DNA from: Escherichia phage PNJ1902
Direction: 5' to 3' (one strand)
Sequence record: OK254197.1
DNA: 64,000 nt
Shown here: in pieces, positions 5,300 to 39,791 of the stretch
How the letters are laid out: the number at the start of each line of letters is the position of its first letter
How positions within the stretch are numbered: position 1 is the first letter of the stretch
Notes under the pieces: model-generated
Databases searched by the model: none
Told to the model about the DNA's origin: nothing
The model's input: only the letters and a program-made list of their open reading frames with translations
Program-made: the position numbers and the translations under genes

Positions 5300-6067
5300 T
5301 TATTCAGCAGCCGCAGCTTTTGCATCCAGTTTAGCACGCTTAGCGGCACCATCATAGTCCTTAGCAACCAGACCACGACGAGACAGCATAGATTTAACAC
5401 CGCGCTCAGACTTACCAGTTTTCTCAGCGATCTCAGCAACAGTCATGTTAACCAGATCCAGACCTTCTAACAGATCTTCACGAGTTTTAGCACTTGAAGT
5501 TTCCTGTACCGGCATAGCAGCGATACGACCTTCACGAAGCAGGCTCAGAGCTTTACCACGGATCTGCTTGATATTACGACCGAAGTGAGCAGCGATAGCT
5601 TCAATAGTAGCACCAGCAACAACCTGATTAACAAAATCAGTTTCTTCATCCGGAGTAAAGGAACGAACAGCGGCAGCTTTTTCGGTTGGCTTAACAGAAG
5701 CGGTCATTTCCAGACTCAGGATCTTACCCTGTACCTGTTTAGCACCGAACTGACCACCAGCTACAGCAGCAGCGATTTCAGCATAGGTATACTGACCAGC
5801 ATGAGCGTTCAGGAAATCAACCAGTTCAGCTTCCTGCTCAGGAGTCCACGGGGATTTCTGTACTTCGTTAGCTTTTTGTACTTCAAAACCTTCTTTACGC
5901 AGTTTAGAGCCAACAGAGCGAGCAGTAACATCTTTGCCAGTTTCAGCAGCCAGTTCAGCAGCGATAGCAGCTACTTGTTCTTGAGAGATTACAGCAACAC
6001 CCAGAGCAGTGGCTTTTGCTTTCAGAGACTCAGTTACACCTTCTACGTTCCAGTTCAGTTTAGACAT
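5300..6067 (-). CDS. Ala/Lys-rich DNA-binding protein (T5 D5-like)
   Basis: 255 aa, repetitive Ala-rich composition; position between ligase and helicase as in T5. Confidence 0.4.
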   Translation of the reverse strand: MSKLNWNVEGVTESLKAKATALGVAVISQEQVAAIAAELAAETGKDVTARSVGSKLRKEGFEVQKANEVQKSPWTPEQEAELVDFLNAHAGQYTYAEIAAAVAGGQFGAKQVQGKILSLEMTASVKPTEKAAAVRSFTPDEETDFVNQVVAGATIEAIAAHFGRNIKQIRGKALSLLREGRIAAMPVQETSSAKTREDLLEGLDLVNMTVAEIAEKTGKSERGVKSMLSRRGLVAKDYDGAAKRAKLDAKAAAAE

Positions 6068-6842
6068 TATTATTTTTCTCCAATAGTTCTTTAATCGACA
6101 GGATTTCTATCCCATTCGTTTCGGCTTTCTTATAAGATGAGGAAGAACGTTTTGATTCATCCTCACAGATTAGGTATTTGACGTCTTTAGTAACGGATTT
6201 CTTAACCGTATACCCTAGACTTTCTAAATAGTTTGTTGCATCCGTTCTATTTGCAAAATCTTGCAAAGATCCGGTAATACATACCGCGATTCCTTTTGGC
6301 TGGGCAACTAATTCATCTGTAATGATGATATTAGCTTTTGCACCTCTGATACCTGTTGAGAATTTCCACGGTAGTTCGATAACATCCTTGCCTTGTGGGG
6401 AATTTAGCCAGGCTTTATAGTTTTCTCCAGCCTTACCGTCAGCCTTCACATCGTGGAAGCTAGTGCAATTTTGGGATAATTTCTTTGCTGCAACCTCTCC
6501 AATTAGAGGGATTCCTAAAGAACCGAGAACTGAACCAAAGTCAATGTCTCCGCGAACTTTAGTATTTAATTCGCTAATTAACTTAGCGGCAACCTTGCTA
6601 CCCACGGCTCTAACCAAATCTTCTTCGGTTAGGTAAAATAGTTCTGAAATCTTCGTCAGCTCCAGCTTCTCAATAGTTTTTGGGCCAAAGCCCTTTAACT
6701 TCATTTTTGAACAGAAGTTCTCAATTAACTTACTTGATTGCGCTGGACAGTTGGACTTATTCCGACAGAATAATTGTCCGTTGACAAGATCTAGCTTAGA
6801 ACCACAAGAGGGACATTGTGTTGGAATTTCGATTTTCATCAA
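6060..6842 (-). CDS. NAD-dependent DNA ligase, C-terminal part (Zn finger, HhH, BRCT-like)
   Basis: 260 aa; CPSCGSKL...C Zn ribbon, HhH-like GFGPKTIEKL. Confidence 0.8.
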   Translation of the reverse strand: MMKIEIPTQCPSCGSKLDLVNGQLFCRNKSNCPAQSSKLIENFCSKMKLKGFGPKTIEKLELTKISELFYLTEEDLVRAVGSKVAAKLISELNTKVRGDIDFGSVLGSLGIPLIGEVAAKKLSQNCTSFHDVKADGKAGENYKAWLNSPQGKDVIELPWKFSTGIRGAKANIIITDELVAQPKGIAVCITGSLQDFANRTDATNYLESLGYTVKKSVTKDVKYLICEDESKRSSSSYKKAETNGIEILSIKELLEKNNNV

Positions 6843-6869
6843 ATTTCTTCCTTATCAATTTATATAAAT

Positions 6870-6898
6870 ATTATAGCAAGTATTTAAGCATTTAGCAA
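6870..6898 (-). promoter_or_regulatory. sigma70 promoter (T5 early type) for ligase C-part gene
   Basis: RC: TTGCTA-17-TATAAT followed by ATAAATTGA leader. Confidence 0.7.
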
Positions 6899-7041
6899 CT
6901 ACAATTTTAACTAACTTTGCTTACCCTCGCCATAACTTTCTATCCCTCAACTGAATGATAATAGTATATACCTAAGCGGCGAAAATGTCAATAACCACTT
7001 TATAATTCCGATATGGTAGATGGGTAGCAAAGGGTTATGTA

Positions 7042-30259: not shown

Positions 30260-30577
30260 ATGACTTTTCATATTTTGATTGATGATGTGCGTAATCTTCA
30301 CGGAATGGACATTATCATTCGAACCCCAGAAGCCGCTGTAGAGTTTCTGAATAAAACTGATACCACAGGCCATTTTGTTTATATGGATAATGACTTGGCT
30401 GTAGATGGTATGGAAGGTTATCAAATTCTTCGTTTACTCTTAGAATTTGGGCAGAGACCAAAGAAAGTGGTACTAGTAACCTCGAACCCAGTAGCTAAGC
30501 AAAATATGCGTAATGATTTGCTTGACTTAGGGTATAAAGAAAATCCCAATCGTGTTGAATATGATTGGCAGGAGTAA
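30260..30577 (+). CDS. Stand-alone receiver (CheY-like) domain protein
   Basis: 105 aa; DD near N-terminus, central Asp, VVLVTS and downstream Lys consistent with receiver fold. Confidence 0.4.
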   Translation: MTFHILIDDVRNLHGMDIIIRTPEAAVEFLNKTDTTGHFVYMDNDLAVDGMEGYQILRLLLEFGQRPKKVVLVTSNPVAKQNMRNDLLDLGYKENPNRVEYDWQE

Positions 30578-30582
30578 AAAGA

Positions 30583-31032
30583 ATGAAGGCAGCTTTGCTT
30601 TTAGTAGCTGCCCTTACCTTCAGCTTTAGTAGTCAGGCATCGCACGATGCAAAAGAAATAGATTGCATTGCTAAAAATATCTATTTCGAGAGTCGTGGTG
30701 AGGGCATAAAGGGAATGACGGCGATTGCACATGTTACTAAAAACCGTGTAAACTCCGGTAAATTCCCAGATTCCTACTGTAAAGTAGTATATCAGTCTAA
30801 CCAGTTCTCTTGGGTATCTAAGAGACCAAAAGTTGATAAAACCGATGAGGCTTGGCAAACAGCCAAGAATTTAGCTAGAGTGATATACTACGTTGATTTA
30901 CCACAAGATCCTACACATGGAGCACTATACTTCCATAGTGGTAAAGATAAACCTTATTGGACAAAGAAGTTTAAGAAAACAACTAAGATTAAGGGACATA
31001 CGTTTTATAAACCTGTTGTCACTAAAACTTAA
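30583..31032 (+). CDS. Secreted SleB-like cell-wall hydrolase
   Basis: ~149 aa from ATG 30583; signal peptide then NIYFESRGEG...AHV..NR motif. Confidence 0.6.
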   Translation: MKAALLLVAALTFSFSSQASHDAKEIDCIAKNIYFESRGEGIKGMTAIAHVTKNRVNSGKFPDSYCKVVYQSNQFSWVSKRPKVDKTDEAWQTAKNLARVIYYVDLPQDPTHGALYFHSGKDKPYWTKKFKKTTKIKGHTFYKPVVTKT

Positions 31033-31040
31033 AAATTTAC

Positions 31041-31069
31041 TTGCTTAAATACTTAAATTTCTGTATAAT
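31041..31069 (+). promoter_or_regulatory. sigma70 promoter (T5 early type)
   Basis: TTGCTT-17-TATAAT. Confidence 0.65.
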
Positions 31070-31100
31070 ACTTCCATAAACTAATGAGAGGAAGCGAAAT

Positions 31101-31271
31101 ATGAAATCAGTTGTAATTATTGGTGTTAACACTCGCGGTATTCGTACTACGAAAACTGTTAAAACATCTAACGTGGCTGAAATTACTACTAACCCTAAAA
31201 AGTTTGATTTCGCCAAAGTCTCGGCAGTTATGACAGAACAATCTTTTAACCAAGCGTTAGGAATGAAATAA
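31101..31271 (+). CDS. Small hypothetical protein
   Basis: 56 aa ORF with RBS GAGGAAG, below 60-aa table cutoff. Confidence 0.4.
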   Translation: MKSVVIIGVNTRGIRTTKTVKTSNVAEITTNPKKFDFAKVSAVMTEQSFNQALGMK

Positions 31272-31714
31272 TGGAAGAGAATATTTTAGATGTTTTGCGT
31301 AGAGCTTTGCAGGATTCTAAGTTTAATGGTTCTGATAAAGAAGTCGCTAAAAGCTACCAGACCATAATCGGGGATCTTCAGCGTATTGATAAAGATTTCA
31401 TCACTTCTGAACAATTTGTGTCTTATCTCAAAGCTCAACTAAAAAGCATTAACCAGATGAAAGCTAAACTTCATGGTCAAGATCTTGATAGTTATAGCTT
31501 GCAGTCTGCTCAGTATGAGTACATTCTAAATAAATGGTTGCAGGAGTATCTGCCTCCTCAGTTATCTGATACTGAGATTCGTAAATACTTTGCAGAATTA
31601 GTTAAGCTAAACCCTGGAATTACAAAGGGTATGCTGATGAAAGCGATTAAGGAAGAATTTCCTGGGCGTTATGATGGCGGTACTGCTGCTCAGATTGCTG
31701 GCGAATTTAATTAA
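31271..31714 (+). CDS. GatB/YqeY-domain protein
   Basis: 147 aa; C-terminal ...MLMKAIKEEFPGRYDGGTAAQIAGEF typical of YqeY family. Confidence 0.5.
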   Translation: MEENILDVLRRALQDSKFNGSDKEVAKSYQTIIGDLQRIDKDFITSEQFVSYLKAQLKSINQMKAKLHGQDLDSYSLQSAQYEYILNKWLQEYLPPQLSDTEIRKYFAELVKLNPGITKGMLMKAIKEEFPGRYDGGTAAQIAGEFN

Positions 31715-31722
31715 AAATTTAT

Positions 31723-31751
31723 TTGCTAAATGCCTTTAAATTCTGTATAAT
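31723..31751 (+). promoter_or_regulatory. sigma70 promoter (T5 early type)
   Basis: TTGCTA-17-TATAAT; fires into ~800-bp ORF-free segment. Confidence 0.7.
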
Positions 31752-31973
31752 ATATTCATAAATTAGGGAACAGCGAGCCGATTACGCTGAGTGCAGAATC
31801 CCAACCGGAGCGCATTGAATAGAGTCGGTGGGTTAGTTGTAAAACTAGTACACAGGGGGCGGCAATCCCGGTTAGTGGCTAGAACGTGTAAAATGAGGCG
31901 TCTGAAACCTCTCCCCTAAACTCTTCTCTAATTTATAAATAGTGGGGTGTGGAAATCACTTATGTAGTAACAC

Positions 31974-32047
31974 TGCCGTCCTAGTATAATTGGTATTATC
32001 AAGCCGTAACTGGTGGAAGATGTAGGTTCGAATCCTACGGTCGGTAA
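31974..32047 (+). ncRNA. tRNA-like element (degenerate)
   Basis: GTAGGTTCGAATCCTAC T-arm and 6/7 bp acceptor pairing, tRNA-sized, but no clean D or anticodon arm. Confidence 0.25.
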
Positions 32048-32548
32048 GAACTGGATAACTGGTGCTTTTAATGTAAAAGCTTCCGAGGTTAGTTGCGCAC
32101 TGCCTAAACCACGCGGTAGTTGGTTCCAGACTAGCCAACCAGTCTGCTGAATAGTTTTATTACGATTTAACTATGTCCAGACTAAAGAAGAACTTTAGAA
32201 GGTATTCTAGGATAGTGAAGTTCTTTCTCCATATCGGAGTAGTTTTTCAAGCTATCCACAAAGTGGGAAATGCTGACATGAGAGATGTCACTAATGGTGC
32301 ACAATAGCACAGGTAATTCGCGATAATTCCTGTTGAGTAGCAGCAAAAGGCGGGAAGTCATGACCCCAAGCCTAACCGAGTCCTCAATATACCGCAGGAC
32401 ATAACCACTAAGTCACCCTGACTTAAACTGGAAAATAATAGACGTTACCGTATTTTGTCTTGAAATACTTAATGAGTGAGACTTATGACTCTCCCGGTAT
32501 CGTCTGTATTTTTAAGAGTTTTTACGAGAGTTCTTAAAAATACTTAAA

Positions 32549-32623
32549 CGGGGTGTAGTCTAAGGGAGAGGCAGGAGTCTTCTAAATTCCTTTATGCAGG
32601 TTCGAATCCTGTCACCTCGGCCA
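32549..32623 (+). tRNA. tRNA-Arg (anticodon UCU), tentative
   Basis: Hand fold: acceptor CGGGGTG/CACCTCG, anticodon stem GGAGT/ATTCC loop CTTCTAA, T-arm GCAGG-TTCGAAT-CCTGT, encoded CCA. Confidence 0.45.
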
Positions 32624-32657
32624 ATTTTATTAACTGTAACTAAAACAAAGGAAATAT

Positions 32658-33605
32658 ATGTTTGCTACTAAAAACACTAAAGAACTGACTTATGAGCAAA
32701 AATTAATGCGTAATATCAAACGTTGGGGTATTGGGGCTGCAGTTGGTTTGGTAGGTTTAGTTCTGGCTCTTAACTCTTACACTGTTGTTCAAGACGGTAC
32801 TGTTAAAACCCAGACTTTCCTGGGTAAAGTTGACCCTAGCCCAGTATTACCCGGCTTTCATATTGTAAATCCTTTTGCTTCTTTCGATACTTTTAGTACT
32901 AAAGATATTGCTCTAAAATTAGATAAACTTCAGGTTCCTAGTCAGGATAAGTTTAAATCCACTGTTGACCTGACTGTTATGTTGCAGTTTGATGGTTCTA
33001 AGGCACCGATTAACCGTATTAATGCAGGTACTCAGGATCAAGCATTAGACAAATATGTAACTGAAAAATTACTGTCTACTATTCGTGAGTTTGGTAAGTC
33101 TGTACCTAAAGCACAAGATTTATTTGATGCTAAAATTCAGGCTCAATTGCAAACCGCAATTCAACAGGAAGTTGAAGAGTATGCACGCCCATATGGTTAC
33201 ACAGTTAAGCAGGTGTTTCTTCAGGATATTACTTTGCCACCGGTAATCATGGAACAGGTACAGAATACCAAAGTTCGTGAAGAGCAAGTTAACGCTGCGA
33301 AAGCTGAACTTGCCCGCGTTGAACAGGAAGCACAGCAAAAAGTTAAACAAGCAGAAGCAGATCGTGAAGCTCGCAACAACCAAGCTATTGCTAATGAACG
33401 TGACGCAGATGCTAAACTGTACGCAGCTAAGAAAGAAGCTGAAGCTAACGCCGCACTGCAACGTACCATTACTCCTGAGATGATTCGTTGGAAACAACTG
33501 GAAGTTGAAATGATTCGTGCTCAGAAGTATCAAGGTGGTGTACCTCAGACTGTAGTTGGCACTGGCTATGATGGTCAAATGATTATGGATATGCGTAACA
33601 AGTAA
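32658..33605 (+). CDS. SPFH/band-7 (prohibitin-like) membrane protein
   Basis: 315 aa; N-terminal TM helix, SPFH-like core, C-terminal Ala/Gln/Glu coiled coil. Confidence 0.55.
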   Translation: MFATKNTKELTYEQKLMRNIKRWGIGAAVGLVGLVLALNSYTVVQDGTVKTQTFLGKVDPSPVLPGFHIVNPFASFDTFSTKDIALKLDKLQVPSQDKFKSTVDLTVMLQFDGSKAPINRINAGTQDQALDKYVTEKLLSTIREFGKSVPKAQDLFDAKIQAQLQTAIQQEVEEYARPYGYTVKQVFLQDITLPPVIMEQVQNTKVREEQVNAAKAELARVEQEAQQKVKQAEADREARNNQAIANERDADAKLYAAKKEAEANAALQRTITPEMIRWKQLEVEMIRAQKYQGGVPQTVVGTGYDGQMIMDMRNK

Positions 33606-33630
33606 TAGTTACACGTAATCTTCGAACTAA

Positions 33631-33662
33631 GCCCGCGTTTTCTCCGAGAGCGCGGGCTTTTC
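33631..33662 (+). terminator. Intrinsic terminator
   Basis: GCCCGCG...CGCGGGC hairpin + TTTT. Confidence 0.7.
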
Positions 33663-33683
33663 TGTATTTAAGGCAAAAGAAAA

Positions 33684-33712
33684 AGCCCCTAAGTCTTTCG
33701 ACTAGGGGCTTT
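33684..33712. terminator. Bidirectional hairpin terminator candidate
   Basis: AGCCCCTAAG...CTAGGGGCT flanked by A-run upstream and T downstream; lies between convergent genes. Confidence 0.5.
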
Positions 33713-33929
33713 ACTGTTTGGTTCTTTAGAACCATATACTCTTGTTACAGCAACCACCCATACGGGAGGCCAATCTTGACTGAAAATCTACTCTAGGGGG
33801 CAGGATAAGAGTAGGCTTAAAGGCAAACGGATTGAACGCCGGTATTTGCGTAAACATTGCTGGAGAGCAACAACGTGCTACAGGCATTGGGCAGCACGAA
33901 ACAGATTTTCTGCAACACATAATTCCTCC

Positions 33930-34346
33930 TTAGGAGTTATTACCACCATTTTGAGCTTTTGCAACTTGGCTTTGGCAGAAGCTATTAAACTTACCCATAA
34001 GTGATACAAGCTGCTTCCCATCCTCTGTCTTTGCGAAGTCTTCGAAAAGGGCTAGTACTGCCTGTCCTTCCGCAGAAACCTGCGGTTGTTGGGTTTGTTG
34101 CTGAACTTGCTGCTGCGGCATCTGTTGCTGCATTTGTTGGGGCATTTGCGACTGCCCGCTCATTTGCTGCATCATTTGCATAGGACTCACACTTCCAGGG
34201 TTTTGCTGGAGTTGTTGCTGCATCTGTTGCGCTTCTGCTAAACGCTGTTGCAATTGTTGTAAGTAGGGGTTATCCAGACCCGGAATGGGCTGCTGGGAGC
34301 CCATACTTTGATTAAGTCCGTTATTTACAAAACCATATTTACTCAT
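33930..34346 (-). CDS. Gln-rich low-complexity protein
   Basis: 138 aa; long Q/M-rich repeats. Confidence 0.45.
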   Translation of the reverse strand: MSKYGFVNNGLNQSMGSQQPIPGLDNPYLQQLQQRLAEAQQMQQQLQQNPGSVSPMQMMQQMSGQSQMPQQMQQQMPQQQVQQQTQQPQVSAEGQAVLALFEDFAKTEDGKQLVSLMGKFNSFCQSQVAKAQNGGNNS

Positions 34347-34367
34347 AATGGGCTCCTCCCCTTAATA

Positions 34368-35354
34368 TTAAGCCGGCAGTTTAGCCTGCAGACCAGCCAG
34401 AGTCTGAGTGATAGCACCAAGACTTAAAGCGATTTGATTAATTACCTGACCGTTAGCACCACTACCCGCAGCGATTGCTTCACGTAGGCGACATGCGTCT
34501 AACTCGTCCTGGATACGTGCAGTAGTTACACCAGCGATCGCAGTCTGAAGTTCACAGCAACATTCAGCGATCTGACGTTCCAGAGAGTTCTGGTTAGCAC
34601 ACATCTGAGCCTGAACAGCGGCAAACTGGTTATTAGTTTGTAAAGTCTGCTGGAAAGCGATCTGTGCAGAATCAAACTTATCTTGTGCACGAGCTATCTG
34701 GTTAGCTGCGAAAGATTGATCAATCTGGCGAGAAAGATCGAACTGACCCTGAATAACGTTGCGAGTTTCCTGGCAGATCTGATTAGACAGATTAGCACCT
34801 GTACCATAGATCGTAGTTAGTACAGACTGAGTATCACGGCTCTGGTTTTGGGATGTCTGGCTAAAACCATTGTTAACTGCGCTTAAAACAGCCCCAGTAC
34901 CCTGGTTAGCTTCTGTACGAGTAGTGTTAATAGCTGCTAGAATACTAGCGGTATCTTGATTCTGAAGTACTGCATCAACTGCGCTACCATCACCAACTAC
35001 ACCACGTCCACCGAATCCACCGAAACCACCGAATCCGCCTGTTAATAGAGCACCGATTAGGATAGCTCCGAATAGTCCCATACCTTCACCACCGAAAGCA
35101 CCTGCGTTTGCTGGGTAACCACCTAGTAGGCCAGGGAAGCCACTAGTGAATACGTTTACTGGTTCTTGCATTTTATGTTTTCCATGTTTATGACAATGTT
35201 CATCATCGTCATCTTCTTCATCATCATGTTCACGATGTTTTTCTTCGTAGGCTCTGACCTTCTCCCACTTTTTCTTATCTGATTCCTCGTGACGGTGCAG
35301 TTCTGCTGCAACGCTAGCGACGGTCTCAGGACTCTTAGCTACTTCTTCTGTCAT
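34368..35354 (-). CDS. Gly-rich membrane-associated hypothetical protein
   Basis: 328 aa; acidic/His-rich N-terminus, GGFGGFGGFGG glycine-zipper segment, Q/A-rich coiled region. Confidence 0.5.
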   Translation of the reverse strand: MTEEVAKSPETVASVAAELHRHEESDKKKWEKVRAYEEKHREHDDEEDDDDEHCHKHGKHKMQEPVNVFTSGFPGLLGGYPANAGAFGGEGMGLFGAILIGALLTGGFGGFGGFGGRGVVGDGSAVDAVLQNQDTASILAAINTTRTEANQGTGAVLSAVNNGFSQTSQNQSRDTQSVLTTIYGTGANLSNQICQETRNVIQGQFDLSRQIDQSFAANQIARAQDKFDSAQIAFQQTLQTNNQFAAVQAQMCANQNSLERQIAECCCELQTAIAGVTTARIQDELDACRLREAIAAGSGANGQVINQIALSLGAITQTLAGLQAKLPA

Positions 35355-35419
35355 TTTTTAACACCTCCTAGTATATAGAAAATGTGTGTCTCTTTGATCA
35401 CTCATCCATAACATATACT

Positions 35420-35447
35420 TTACACTACCCCAACAAAAATGTCAAGG
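35420..35447 (-). promoter_or_regulatory. Putative sigma70 promoter
   Basis: RC: TTGACA-17-TAAAGT. Confidence 0.35.
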
Positions 35448-35561
35448 GGTCTTTAAAAATTGCCCCCGGATTTTTAGTGGGGTCACAAATTTTGGTCCTC
35501 ACCACTTATCTGCTACCCTTAAGTGCCCTATGATTTTCCTCTAAAAAGTTAAAAATTTTGA

Positions 35562-35590
35562 TTGCTTGAATGCTAAATTCTCTGTATAAT
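35562..35590 (+). promoter_or_regulatory. sigma70 promoter (T5 early type)
   Basis: TTGCTT-17-TATAAT + ATAAATTTGAGAGAGG leader. Confidence 0.7.
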
Positions 35591-35620
35591 ATATCTATAA
35601 ATTTGAGAGAGGAATAAGAT

Positions 35621-36139
35621 ATGAATGTTGATGAGCTAACACAGCACCTCTTATCTAGAGGATTTGATACAGATAAATATCATTGCTGGTTAAGCCCGGA
35701 AGGGTGGCTAACAGTCCCATTGTATGACTTCTCTGGGATGTTGCGGGGCTATCAGACGTATAATCCTTCTGCTCCAAAAGGGCATGGTAAGTGCCCCTTT
35801 GAGGCTAAATATTTTACCTACTCCACTACACAGTGTGTATGGGGACTAGAAACTCTCAATGGAGATGAAAAAGTAGTATTGATTGCTGAATCTGTATTTA
35901 AGGCAGTTGCATTACATAATGCTGGTTATCCAGCCCTAGCAATGTTGGGTTCTACCCCAGGAAAAGCGTTATTAAAGCAACTGAAATTACTACCTTTTAA
36001 ATTGGTAGCTGTCGGGGATAATGATCCTGCGGGTGAAAAATTTGCTAGAAAATTGAACGGCTTTGTTTCTCCTGTAGATGTGGATGAGATGTCTACCGAA
36101 AACTTGAAAAATTTTCTTGCTATGAAGCTAAATTTCTAA
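35621..36139 (+). CDS. Toprim-domain protein
   Basis: 172 aa; conserved Glu (LIAES) and DxD (GDNDPAG). Confidence 0.5.
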   Translation: MNVDELTQHLLSRGFDTDKYHCWLSPEGWLTVPLYDFSGMLRGYQTYNPSAPKGHGKCPFEAKYFTYSTTQCVWGLETLNGDEKVVLIAESVFKAVALHNAGYPALAMLGSTPGKALLKQLKLLPFKLVAVGDNDPAGEKFARKLNGFVSPVDVDEMSTENLKNFLAMKLNF

Positions 36140-36160
36140 TATAATATATCTTATAAATTC

Positions 36161-36249
36161 GGAAGAATAGCATAACGGTATTGCAGCAGATTGCTAATCT
36201 GTCGGTTTGAAATATAGCCTTGTGGGTTCGATTCCCACTTCTTCCGCCA
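36161..36249 (+). tRNA. tRNA-Ser (anticodon GCU), class II
   Basis: Hand fold: acceptor GGAAGAA/TTCTTCC, loop TTGCTAA, long variable arm, T-arm GTGGG-TTCGATT-CCCAC, CCA encoded. Confidence 0.55.
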
Positions 36250-39670: not shown

Positions 39671-39791
39671 ATTCTAGCGTGGTTGATGGGGAAACCAGCT
39701 TGGCTAGGGCAGAAGCTCGTTCGATTCGAGTGAAAGAATGGTTCTCGTAAGTCCGCACAAGTGATAACAGGTTCGAGTCCTGTCTAGAATG
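39671..39791 (+). ncRNA. tRNA-like cloverleaf with ~48-nt insertion in the anticodon loop
   Basis: Perfect 7-bp acceptor ATTCTAG/CTAGAAT, D stem TGGT/ACCA, anticodon stem GCTTG/CAAGT enclosing 55 nt, T-arm ACAGG-TTCGAGT-CCTGT. Confidence 0.4.

Follow-up and report, generated by a model that had tools for sequence, protein, structure and literature searches.

An SPFH/band-7 membrane protein of the T5.080 type in Escherichia phage PNJ1902

What kind of protein is encoded by an open reading frame (ORF) of 315 codons in the tRNA region of a T5-like phage, and what might it contribute to infection? The ORF occupies positions 32658..33605 of a stretch of 64,000 nucleotides from Escherichia phage PNJ1902 (record OK254197.1), which is called the window throughout. 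We find that the ORF is a real gene, and that its product is almost certainly a member of the SPFH/band-7 superfamily, of the type represented by T5.080 of phage T5. Neither the gene nor the label is new. Both are in GenBank, where an identical protein, from Salmonella phage SP33, bears the annotation 'SPFH domain / band 7 family protein', and a Pfam SPFH hit was listed by Nolan et al. in 2006 (PMC1524935) for RB43ORF139c, 44RRORF098c and Aeh1ORF064c of T4-like phages, which are orthologues with no difference of substance. The function is another matter, and a paper of 2026 describes the presence of SPFH genes in phages as still unexplained (PMC13239085).

Fold, membrane anchor and orientation

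The assignment is carried by a profile search and by the comparison of structures. Residues 52-225 of the protein match the Pfam family Band_7 (PF01145) with a score of 63.9 bits, compared with a gathering score of 23.6, and the match spans profile positions 13-176 of 176. PF01145 is also present in all the listed homologues of the phage protein. A preliminary description of this DNA had proposed a transmembrane anchor and an SPFH-like core, and had named a profile search that detects no SPFH domain as the outcome that would speak against it; the domain is found, and well above the gathering score. The anchor is seen as a single hydrophobic segment at about residues 24-40 (best 19-residue Kyte-Doolittle window 1.81), and a hydrophobic N-terminal anchor is kept in all 26 aligned members of the family.

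An AlphaFold2 model of the single chain was built on the alignment of these 26 members (alignment A1), with a mean predicted local distance difference test (pLDDT) of 78.9 and a predicted template modelling score (pTM) of 0.46. In the model a transmembrane helix (residues 12-38) leads into a beta/alpha SPFH core (residues 41-192), followed by an unbroken helix (residues 195-270), a further helix (residues 273-291) and two short C-terminal strands. Foldseek comparison of the model with the PDB returned near-full-length alignments, of about 260-310 columns, with Erlin1/2 (E = 1.5e-14), prohibitin 1/2 (E = 3e-13), HflK/C (7vhq; E = 3.6e-12), stomatin (E = 1e-11), QmcA (E = 1.4e-10), flotillin (E = 3e-8) and the major vault protein (E = 1e-6). 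The values for full-length cage-forming SPFH proteins, from 1e-14 to 1e-10, bear out the core that had been proposed. As modelled, the order of the domains is the same as that of the cage-forming SPFH proteins erlin, prohibitin, HflK/C, QmcA and stomatin.

The helix that follows the core had been described as a long coiled coil rich in Ala and Gln. One long helix is indeed predicted, but with 28% Ala, 15% Glu and 11% Gln over residues 206-270 it is better called Ala/Glu-rich. Differences in its length within the family are of exactly 11 or 22 residues (A1 columns 263-297, around residues 245-250 of the window protein), which fits a helix held in register inside the packed wall of a barrel. The hydrophobic periodicity of the helix gave mixed peaks, with periods of 3.5, 4.0 and 11, and was not used as evidence. 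Conservation across the family alignment is strong, especially in the part predicted to be periplasmic and in most of the C-terminal segment. An invariant motif VPSQDK.K is found within the core at residues 93-100, and residues 273-315 are for the most part highly conserved (TITPEMIRWK...GGVPxTVVG).

How close is the protein to the SPFH proteins of known structure? In sequence the relation is remote. Against the PDB the family profile finds QmcA at E = 2.7e-7, the prohibitins at ~1e-4 and HflC at 0.005, and a scan of NCBIfam (maximum E of 1) gave no family match apart from a chance hit to SecD. The earlier term prohibitin-like is thus correct at the level of the superfamily only, and the protein is a divergent member that is not an orthologue of prohibitin, HflK/C or QmcA. 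The erlin1/2 and PHB1/2 cages (9vvj, 9o9u, 8rrh and 9o9z) are its best structural matches, with E values of 1.5e-14 to 3e-12, but these are eukaryotic hetero-oligomers of 16-20% identity, again related at the superfamily level only. Escherichia coli QmcA (8z5g) is the best sequence match among the solved structures. It is a homo-oligomeric SPFH protein encoded by a single gene, with the same N-terminal anchor, SPFH core and long helix; it differs in that the identity is ~20%, and in being paired with an NfeD partner, YbbJ (according to the PDB title), whereas the phage gene has no NfeD-like neighbour.

By analogy with these relatives, the phage protein is likely to be a cage-forming scaffold. 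Against this it must be said that the solved relatives share only 16-20% identity with it, that the pTM is no higher than 0.46, and that the root mean square deviation from the solved chains is 11-26 Å, with a different angle between core and helix.

Which way would such a scaffold face? Lys and Arg outnumber Asp and Glu before the transmembrane segment in 26 of 26 aligned family members, and the 15 residues that follow it carry little net charge. By the positive-inside rule, a tail rich in Lys and Arg followed by a near-neutral stretch beyond the membrane predicts a periplasmic SPFH domain. On this basis we favour, with moderate confidence, an N-in orientation that places the SPFH domain and the helices in the periplasm; it counts against this orientation that the positive-inside rule is its one source. 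The SPFH domain of HflK/C faces the periplasm, and erlin and prohibitin have type-II anchors that leave the SPFH domain on the side away from the cytosol. QmcA faces the cytoplasm, a further difference from the phage protein as predicted.

The anchor bears too on a name that the family has acquired. The protein matches phrog_200 of PHROGs (E = 1.5e-85), which is called 'lipoprotein', and many GenBank and RefSeq records carry this product name. There is, though, not one Cys among the 315 residues, and hence a lipobox is impossible; for the window protein the lipoprotein reading is refuted. No Cys is present in 23 of the 26 family members, and a lipobox-like context occurs in just one of them, from Morganella phage Mm5 (...IGSC...). 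A lipid anchor thus has next to no chance of being the correct reading. The product name of PHROG 200 is wrong for most of its members, for which 'SPFH/band-7 membrane protein' would be more apt.

The predicted orientation has a different consequence, since it is that of HflK/C. The phage protein could be a mimic of HflK/C that binds or cages host FtsH, or that co-assembles with HflK/C or displaces it, altering the turnover of phage or host membrane proteins by FtsH. The order of domains is the same, the periplasm-facing N-in topology is predicted to be shared, and HflK/C within its complexes with FtsH (7vhq, 7wi3 and 9cz2) is among the structural matches. In addition, one homologue from a Vibrio phage is labelled 'putative modulator of FtsH protease' and another 'regulator of protease activity HflC' (JGI source), these being labels and not tests. 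The sequences point elsewhere, however. No HflK or HflC model was matched in NCBIfam, and the similarity of the profile to HflC is marginal and weaker than that to QmcA and prohibitin. Moreover HflK/C is a hetero-oligomer of an obligate pair of paralogues, whereas the phage has a single SPFH gene, preceded by a tRNA and followed by terminators, and as T5 is strictly lytic the classic logic of lambda cII is not applicable. We consider an HflK/C mimic unlikely, and a scaffold assembled from the phage protein itself remains the preferred reading of the structure.

The gene, its transcription unit and its neighbours

The window is from a T5-like phage. A region of 2.4 kb around the ORF is 99% identical to Salmonella phage Th1; with many further T5-like phages (Demerecviridae, Tequintavirus and relatives) the identity is 97-99%. 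Matches occur in 450 phage records, and the 21 tRNA genes of the window mark it as the T5 tRNA region. The protein is 95% identical to T5.080 and 99.7% identical to 'ORF trn 1.1' of Salmonella phage 5, orthologues that occupy the same place in the order P16-17, RNAX, tRNA-Arg, ORF and bidirectional terminator. Comparison with T5.080 by the method of Nei and Gojobori gives a synonymous divergence (dS) of 0.47 and a ratio of non-synonymous to synonymous divergence (dN/dS) of 0.06. The ORF is therefore a protein-coding gene, with its plus-strand frame under strong purifying selection. Two ORFs on the minus strand within it (33120..33578 and 33221..33469) were rejected as genes on the same ground; they lie opposite the Ala/Glu-rich helix and are by-products of that region. 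The features of the locus are collected in Table 1.

Table 1. Features of the SPFH locus in the window, with the segments of the encoded protein
Feature	Position	Strand	Basis or remark
cREC_REC (cyclic-phosphate processing receiver) domain protein	30260-30577	+	Pfam
SleB/CwlJ-type cell-wall hydrolase (PF07486), signal peptide	30565-31032	+	Distinct from the canonical T5 endolysin
Sigma-70-type promoter-like site, TTGCTA-17-TATAAT	31723..31751	+	10/12 hexamer matches; position of annotated P16-17
RNAX equivalent, non-coding, ~785 nt	31764..32548	+	Annotation of the orthologous T5 and Salmonella phage 5 loci
tRNA-like element inside the RNAX region	31975-32046	+	Rfam tRNA, 35.5 bits (gathering score 29)
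tRNA-Arg (anticodon UCU)	32549..32623	+	ARAGORN, Rfam, Salmonella phage 5 record; 3' end 34 nt before ATG
Ribosome-binding site, AAGGA	32648-32652	+	Sequence; annotated at the same place in Salmonella phage 5
Coding sequence, 315 aa, SPFH/band-7 family membrane protein	32658..33605	+	ATG start; orthologue of T5.080 and 'ORF trn 1.1'
Residues 1-23, Lys/Arg-rich N-terminal tail	32658..32726	+	6 K/R vs 2 D/E; predicted cytoplasmic
Residues 24-40, single transmembrane anchor	32727..32777	+	Hydropathy; model helix 12-38
Residues 41-192, SPFH alpha/beta core	32778..33233	+	Pfam, alignment, AlphaFold2 model, Foldseek
Residues 195-270, one 76-residue Ala/Glu-rich helix, predicted equivalent of the 'wall' helix of SPFH cages	33240..33467	+	Model, composition, alignment
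Residues 273-315, second helix and two short C-terminal strands, predicted cap-region equivalent	33474..33602	+	Model, alignment
First terminator, GC-rich hairpin and T-run	33629..33659	+	-24.1 kcal/mol, z -4.5
Second terminator, rho-independent, bidirectional	~33674..33717	both	-21.7 kcal/mol; z -3.4 and -4.5 on the two strands

How is the gene expressed? In the curated records of T5 and Salmonella phage 5 the early promoter P16-17 lies ~0.9 kb upstream of the ORF, and is followed by RNAX, tRNA-Arg and the ORF. Positions 9-83 of the Salmonella phage 5 locus correspond to 31703-31777 of the window, and the sigma-70-type site found there is the probable start of the RNAX-tRNA-ORF transcription unit. 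RNAX is annotated in those records as a stable RNA of 720-785 nt whose function is unknown. The Rfam match indicates that it contains a tRNA-like element, at a position where ARAGORN called no tRNA. The tRNA-Arg is probably co-transcribed with the ORF and then processed away from the mRNA. Upstream of the gene there is only one hairpin, an AU-rich one at 32506-32543, and it was rejected as a terminator; it has no U-run and its folding is not significant, the z value being -1.8 and 11 of 200 shuffled sequences folding as well.

Downstream the situation is quite different. Two strong hairpins, each with a T-run behind it, follow the gene, the second of which is ter1, the 'efficient bidirectional terminator' of the T5 and Salmonella phage 5 records, shared with a convergent operon on the minus strand (35354..33726). 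An Rfam search of 31500-34000 gave only tRNA models above the gathering score, all hits to small RNA and ctRNA models over the terminators falling below it. The gene had been described as an independent unit flanked by strong terminators. That holds for its downstream side; upstream are tRNA-Arg and RNAX, and no terminator. From the annotation of the orthologous loci, the SPFH gene is most likely the last cistron of an early promoter-RNAX-tRNA-ORF transcript.

The first hairpin coincides with another feature of T5 DNA. Within it is the sequence AGCGC, in agreement with the consensus for T5 nicks (Pu pGCGC) and with the step from A to GCGC falling at 33649/33650. The corresponding site in the T5 record, which lies 45 nt beyond the stop codon, is annotated as the major single-strand interruption of T5 (39746-39747; 39746/121750 = 32.6% of the genome). 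The hairpin is thus a probable nick site as well as a terminator.

The convergent operon comprises three ORFs (34368..35354, 33930..34346 and 33726..33920) that are unusual in composition, have no Pfam hits and are the counterparts of T5.077-T5.079. They encode a protein of 328 aa, with a His/Asp/Glu-rich N-terminus, a glycine-zipper hydrophobic stretch (GGFGGFGGFGG) and a Q/N/A-rich tail, together with a poly-Gln-rich protein of 138 aa and a Cys-rich protein of 64 aa.

Do the neighbours of the gene suggest a partner? Of eight adjacent ORFs compared with Pfam, three had no match and the others matched cREC_REC, Hydrolase_2, DUF7616, YqeY and Toprim; an NfeD-family gene was looked for among the eight and not found. 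Neither NfeD nor a second SPFH paralogue is present in any of the phage lineages inspected, so that the gene is solitary. A conserved partner was sought in six phage and two bacterial contexts, and none was found save for the loose recurrence of a nearby PF07486 hydrolase. In four contexts the hydrolase gene is no more than 2 kb away from the SPFH gene, namely the window, a distant T5-like contig (P0113), Proteus phage Privateer, where it is annotated as an endolysin, and a Privateer-like contig (P0096).

Such an arrangement could be read as pointing to an accessory role in the envelope or in the timing of lysis, with the protein stabilizing the inner membrane until lysis, for example, or organizing the secreted hydrolase. 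The location in T4-like phages is in keeping with this, where the SPFH gene belongs to the tk-rI region; in RB43 it follows rI and rI.-1 immediately, and in phiAS4 it is 2.7 kb from rI. Yet the links are weak and could be synteny inherited within plastic regions. In T5-type records the SPFH gene and the hydrolase belong to different transcription units with separate promoters, neither a PF07486 hydrolase nor an rI-type neighbour lies beside the SPFH gene in the Vibrio phages inspected, and the T5 st0 deletion strain discussed below has lost the SPFH gene, keeps the hydrolase and still grows. A role of this kind appears improbable.

Distribution and dispensability

How general is the gene? A tblastn search finds the protein in 737 phage records. 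The identity is 90-100% in T5-like phages of Salmonella and Escherichia, 73-76% in Privateer-like phages of Proteus and Salmonella, and ~63% in T4-like phages of Aeromonas, falling to 23-44% over the SPFH core in several Vibrio phages. T4-like phages of Klebsiella, Enterobacter, Citrobacter and Cronobacter, together with RB43, encode proteins that are 80-85% identical over residues 39-313 and have a different N-terminus. Among 1.84 billion cluster representatives the family profile finds 1983 proteins at E <= 1e-3 and 86 at E <= 1e-30. As judged from these searches, the T5.080-type family is a narrow clade within the SPFH superfamily. Two of the metagenomic contigs that carry the gene are phage-like. 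P0113, of 78 kb, encodes ribonucleotide reductase, dihydrofolate reductase, thymidylate synthase and RNase H, and has the same local order as the window (Hydrolase_2, YqeY, a non-coding gap, Band_7), while P0096 resembles Proteus phage Privateer.

Viral SPFH proteins are not restricted to this clade. Many other phages, and giant viruses as well, have similar structures in BFVD, with 14-21% identity. They include proteins of Vibrio phage pVa5, Rhizobium phage Pasto and Streptomyces phage StarPlatinum (the last labelled 'band-7-like membrane protein') and Band 7 proteins of giant viruses, which have the same predicted fold (E = 2.6e-18 to 1e-12) but, at such low identity, would be separate acquisitions or the result of very old divergence.

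A scan of species-representative genomes revealed 13 stand-alone chromosomal copies, all in Providencia and Morganella, of 55-60% identity (loci L010-L022, at about 5970-6940 of each). The copy of Morganella morganii is between a TetR/alcohol-dehydrogenase pair and an HlyD/ABC-C39 exporter, and that of Providencia vermicola between an Asp/Glu racemase and 2-thiouracil desulfurase. The neighbours thus differ between the genera, and there are no phage genes within 6 kb on either side of these two copies. By neighbour joining the chromosomal sequences group tightly together, nested among metagenomic sequences on phage-like contigs. This suggests, on the basis of a simple distance tree, that a phage gene passed to Morganellaceae and was domesticated there, and not that the gene moved in the opposite direction. 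A further copy, 76% identical, is in an assembly of the marine flavobacterium Flagellimonas marina (L009), on a contig of 178,077 bp that has the size of a complete T4-like phage genome; it is probably contamination or a mis-binned phage.

Is the gene needed by the phage? The record of the T5 st0 deletion mutant has 113,238 bp, compared with 121,750 bp for the wild type, with a recombination junction between T5p066 and T5p079. A tblastn search with the SPFH protein gave no hit in the 14-kb stretch of st0 that spans the junction, and the same stretch aligns only to the first 275 bases of 31000-36200 of the window. Thus the 8.5-kb deletion leaves st0 without the SPFH gene, RNAX, tRNAs that include tRNA-Arg, and the convergent operon. 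Because T5 st0, a viable and widely used laboratory strain, lacks the gene, the SPFH gene is accessory under laboratory conditions. What st0 shows is dispensability in laboratory E. coli only, and this limits the extent to which it supports an accessory role in general. In the natural T5-like phage NG_S8 only a C-terminal fragment of the gene remains.

The gene is accessory, the phage can do without it in the laboratory, and it moves on its own as a cassette from one virulent phage lineage to another unrelated one, the T5-like and RB43-like proteins having 83% amino-acid identity over residues 39-313 with a different N-terminus. Such a pattern is typical of genes involved in conflict. It could serve in superinfection exclusion, or in protection against abortive-infection effectors that target the membrane, with a periplasmic dome hindering the entry of competitor DNA or blunting pore-forming effectors. 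The placement in the early region is consistent with this. Nevertheless no PADLOC model of anti-phage defence was matched (0 families at E <= 1), the literature gave no support, there is no direct evidence, and the chromosomal copies of Providencia and Morganella are in housekeeping neighbourhoods rather than defence islands. We regard exclusion or protection as a doubtful explanation, and rank it together with the envelope role and the HflK/C-like effect on FtsH, all three being roughly equally low.

A possible role in infection

The explanation that we prefer as a whole, and hold to be somewhat better than an even prospect, is that the protein is made early and forms a homo-oligomeric SPFH dome in the periplasm that confers a conditional, accessory advantage. 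The infecting phage would express it early, from the final cistron of a transcript running from P16-17 through RNAX and tRNA-Arg to the ORF and ending at the two terminators. The protein would insert with its N-terminus inside, so that the SPFH domain and the helices would be periplasmic, like those of HflK/C. It might then self-assemble, as the cages of HflK/C, QmcA, prohibitin and erlin suggest by analogy, into a homo-oligomeric dome that would sit on the inner membrane from the periplasmic side and fence off a patch of it. Inner-membrane proteins or lipids of the host could be corralled within the dome or excluded from it, and the infected envelope might in this way be kept working, or membrane proteases or incoming agents might find their access to the membrane changed. 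No essential step of the lytic cycle would be performed by the protein. It weighs against this explanation that the searchable literature gave no interaction partner, expression data, phenotype or functional study for the T5.080-type family, and we consider it improbable that any one specific target could be named correctly at present.

A bolder proposal would link several of these elements. The T5.080-type proteins may constitute a phage-specific SPFH clade in which a periplasm-facing cage takes over a host membrane machine, FtsH/HflKC or another, or shields the membrane from competing phages or suicide effectors, the cassette having been traded among T5-like, T4-like, Privateer-like and Vibrio phages and domesticated by Providencia and Morganella. 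We give this little weight as it stands. If true, it would provide the first virus-encoded organizer of membrane microdomains with a defined role in bacterial infection.

The gene is relevant to the question of why many unrelated virulent phages, and giant viruses, carry SPFH scaffolds. For the study of that question the T5-type gene offers a convenient model, being a single gene of high conservation, with a viable deletion strain in T5 st0 and with chromosomal relatives in the Morganellaceae.

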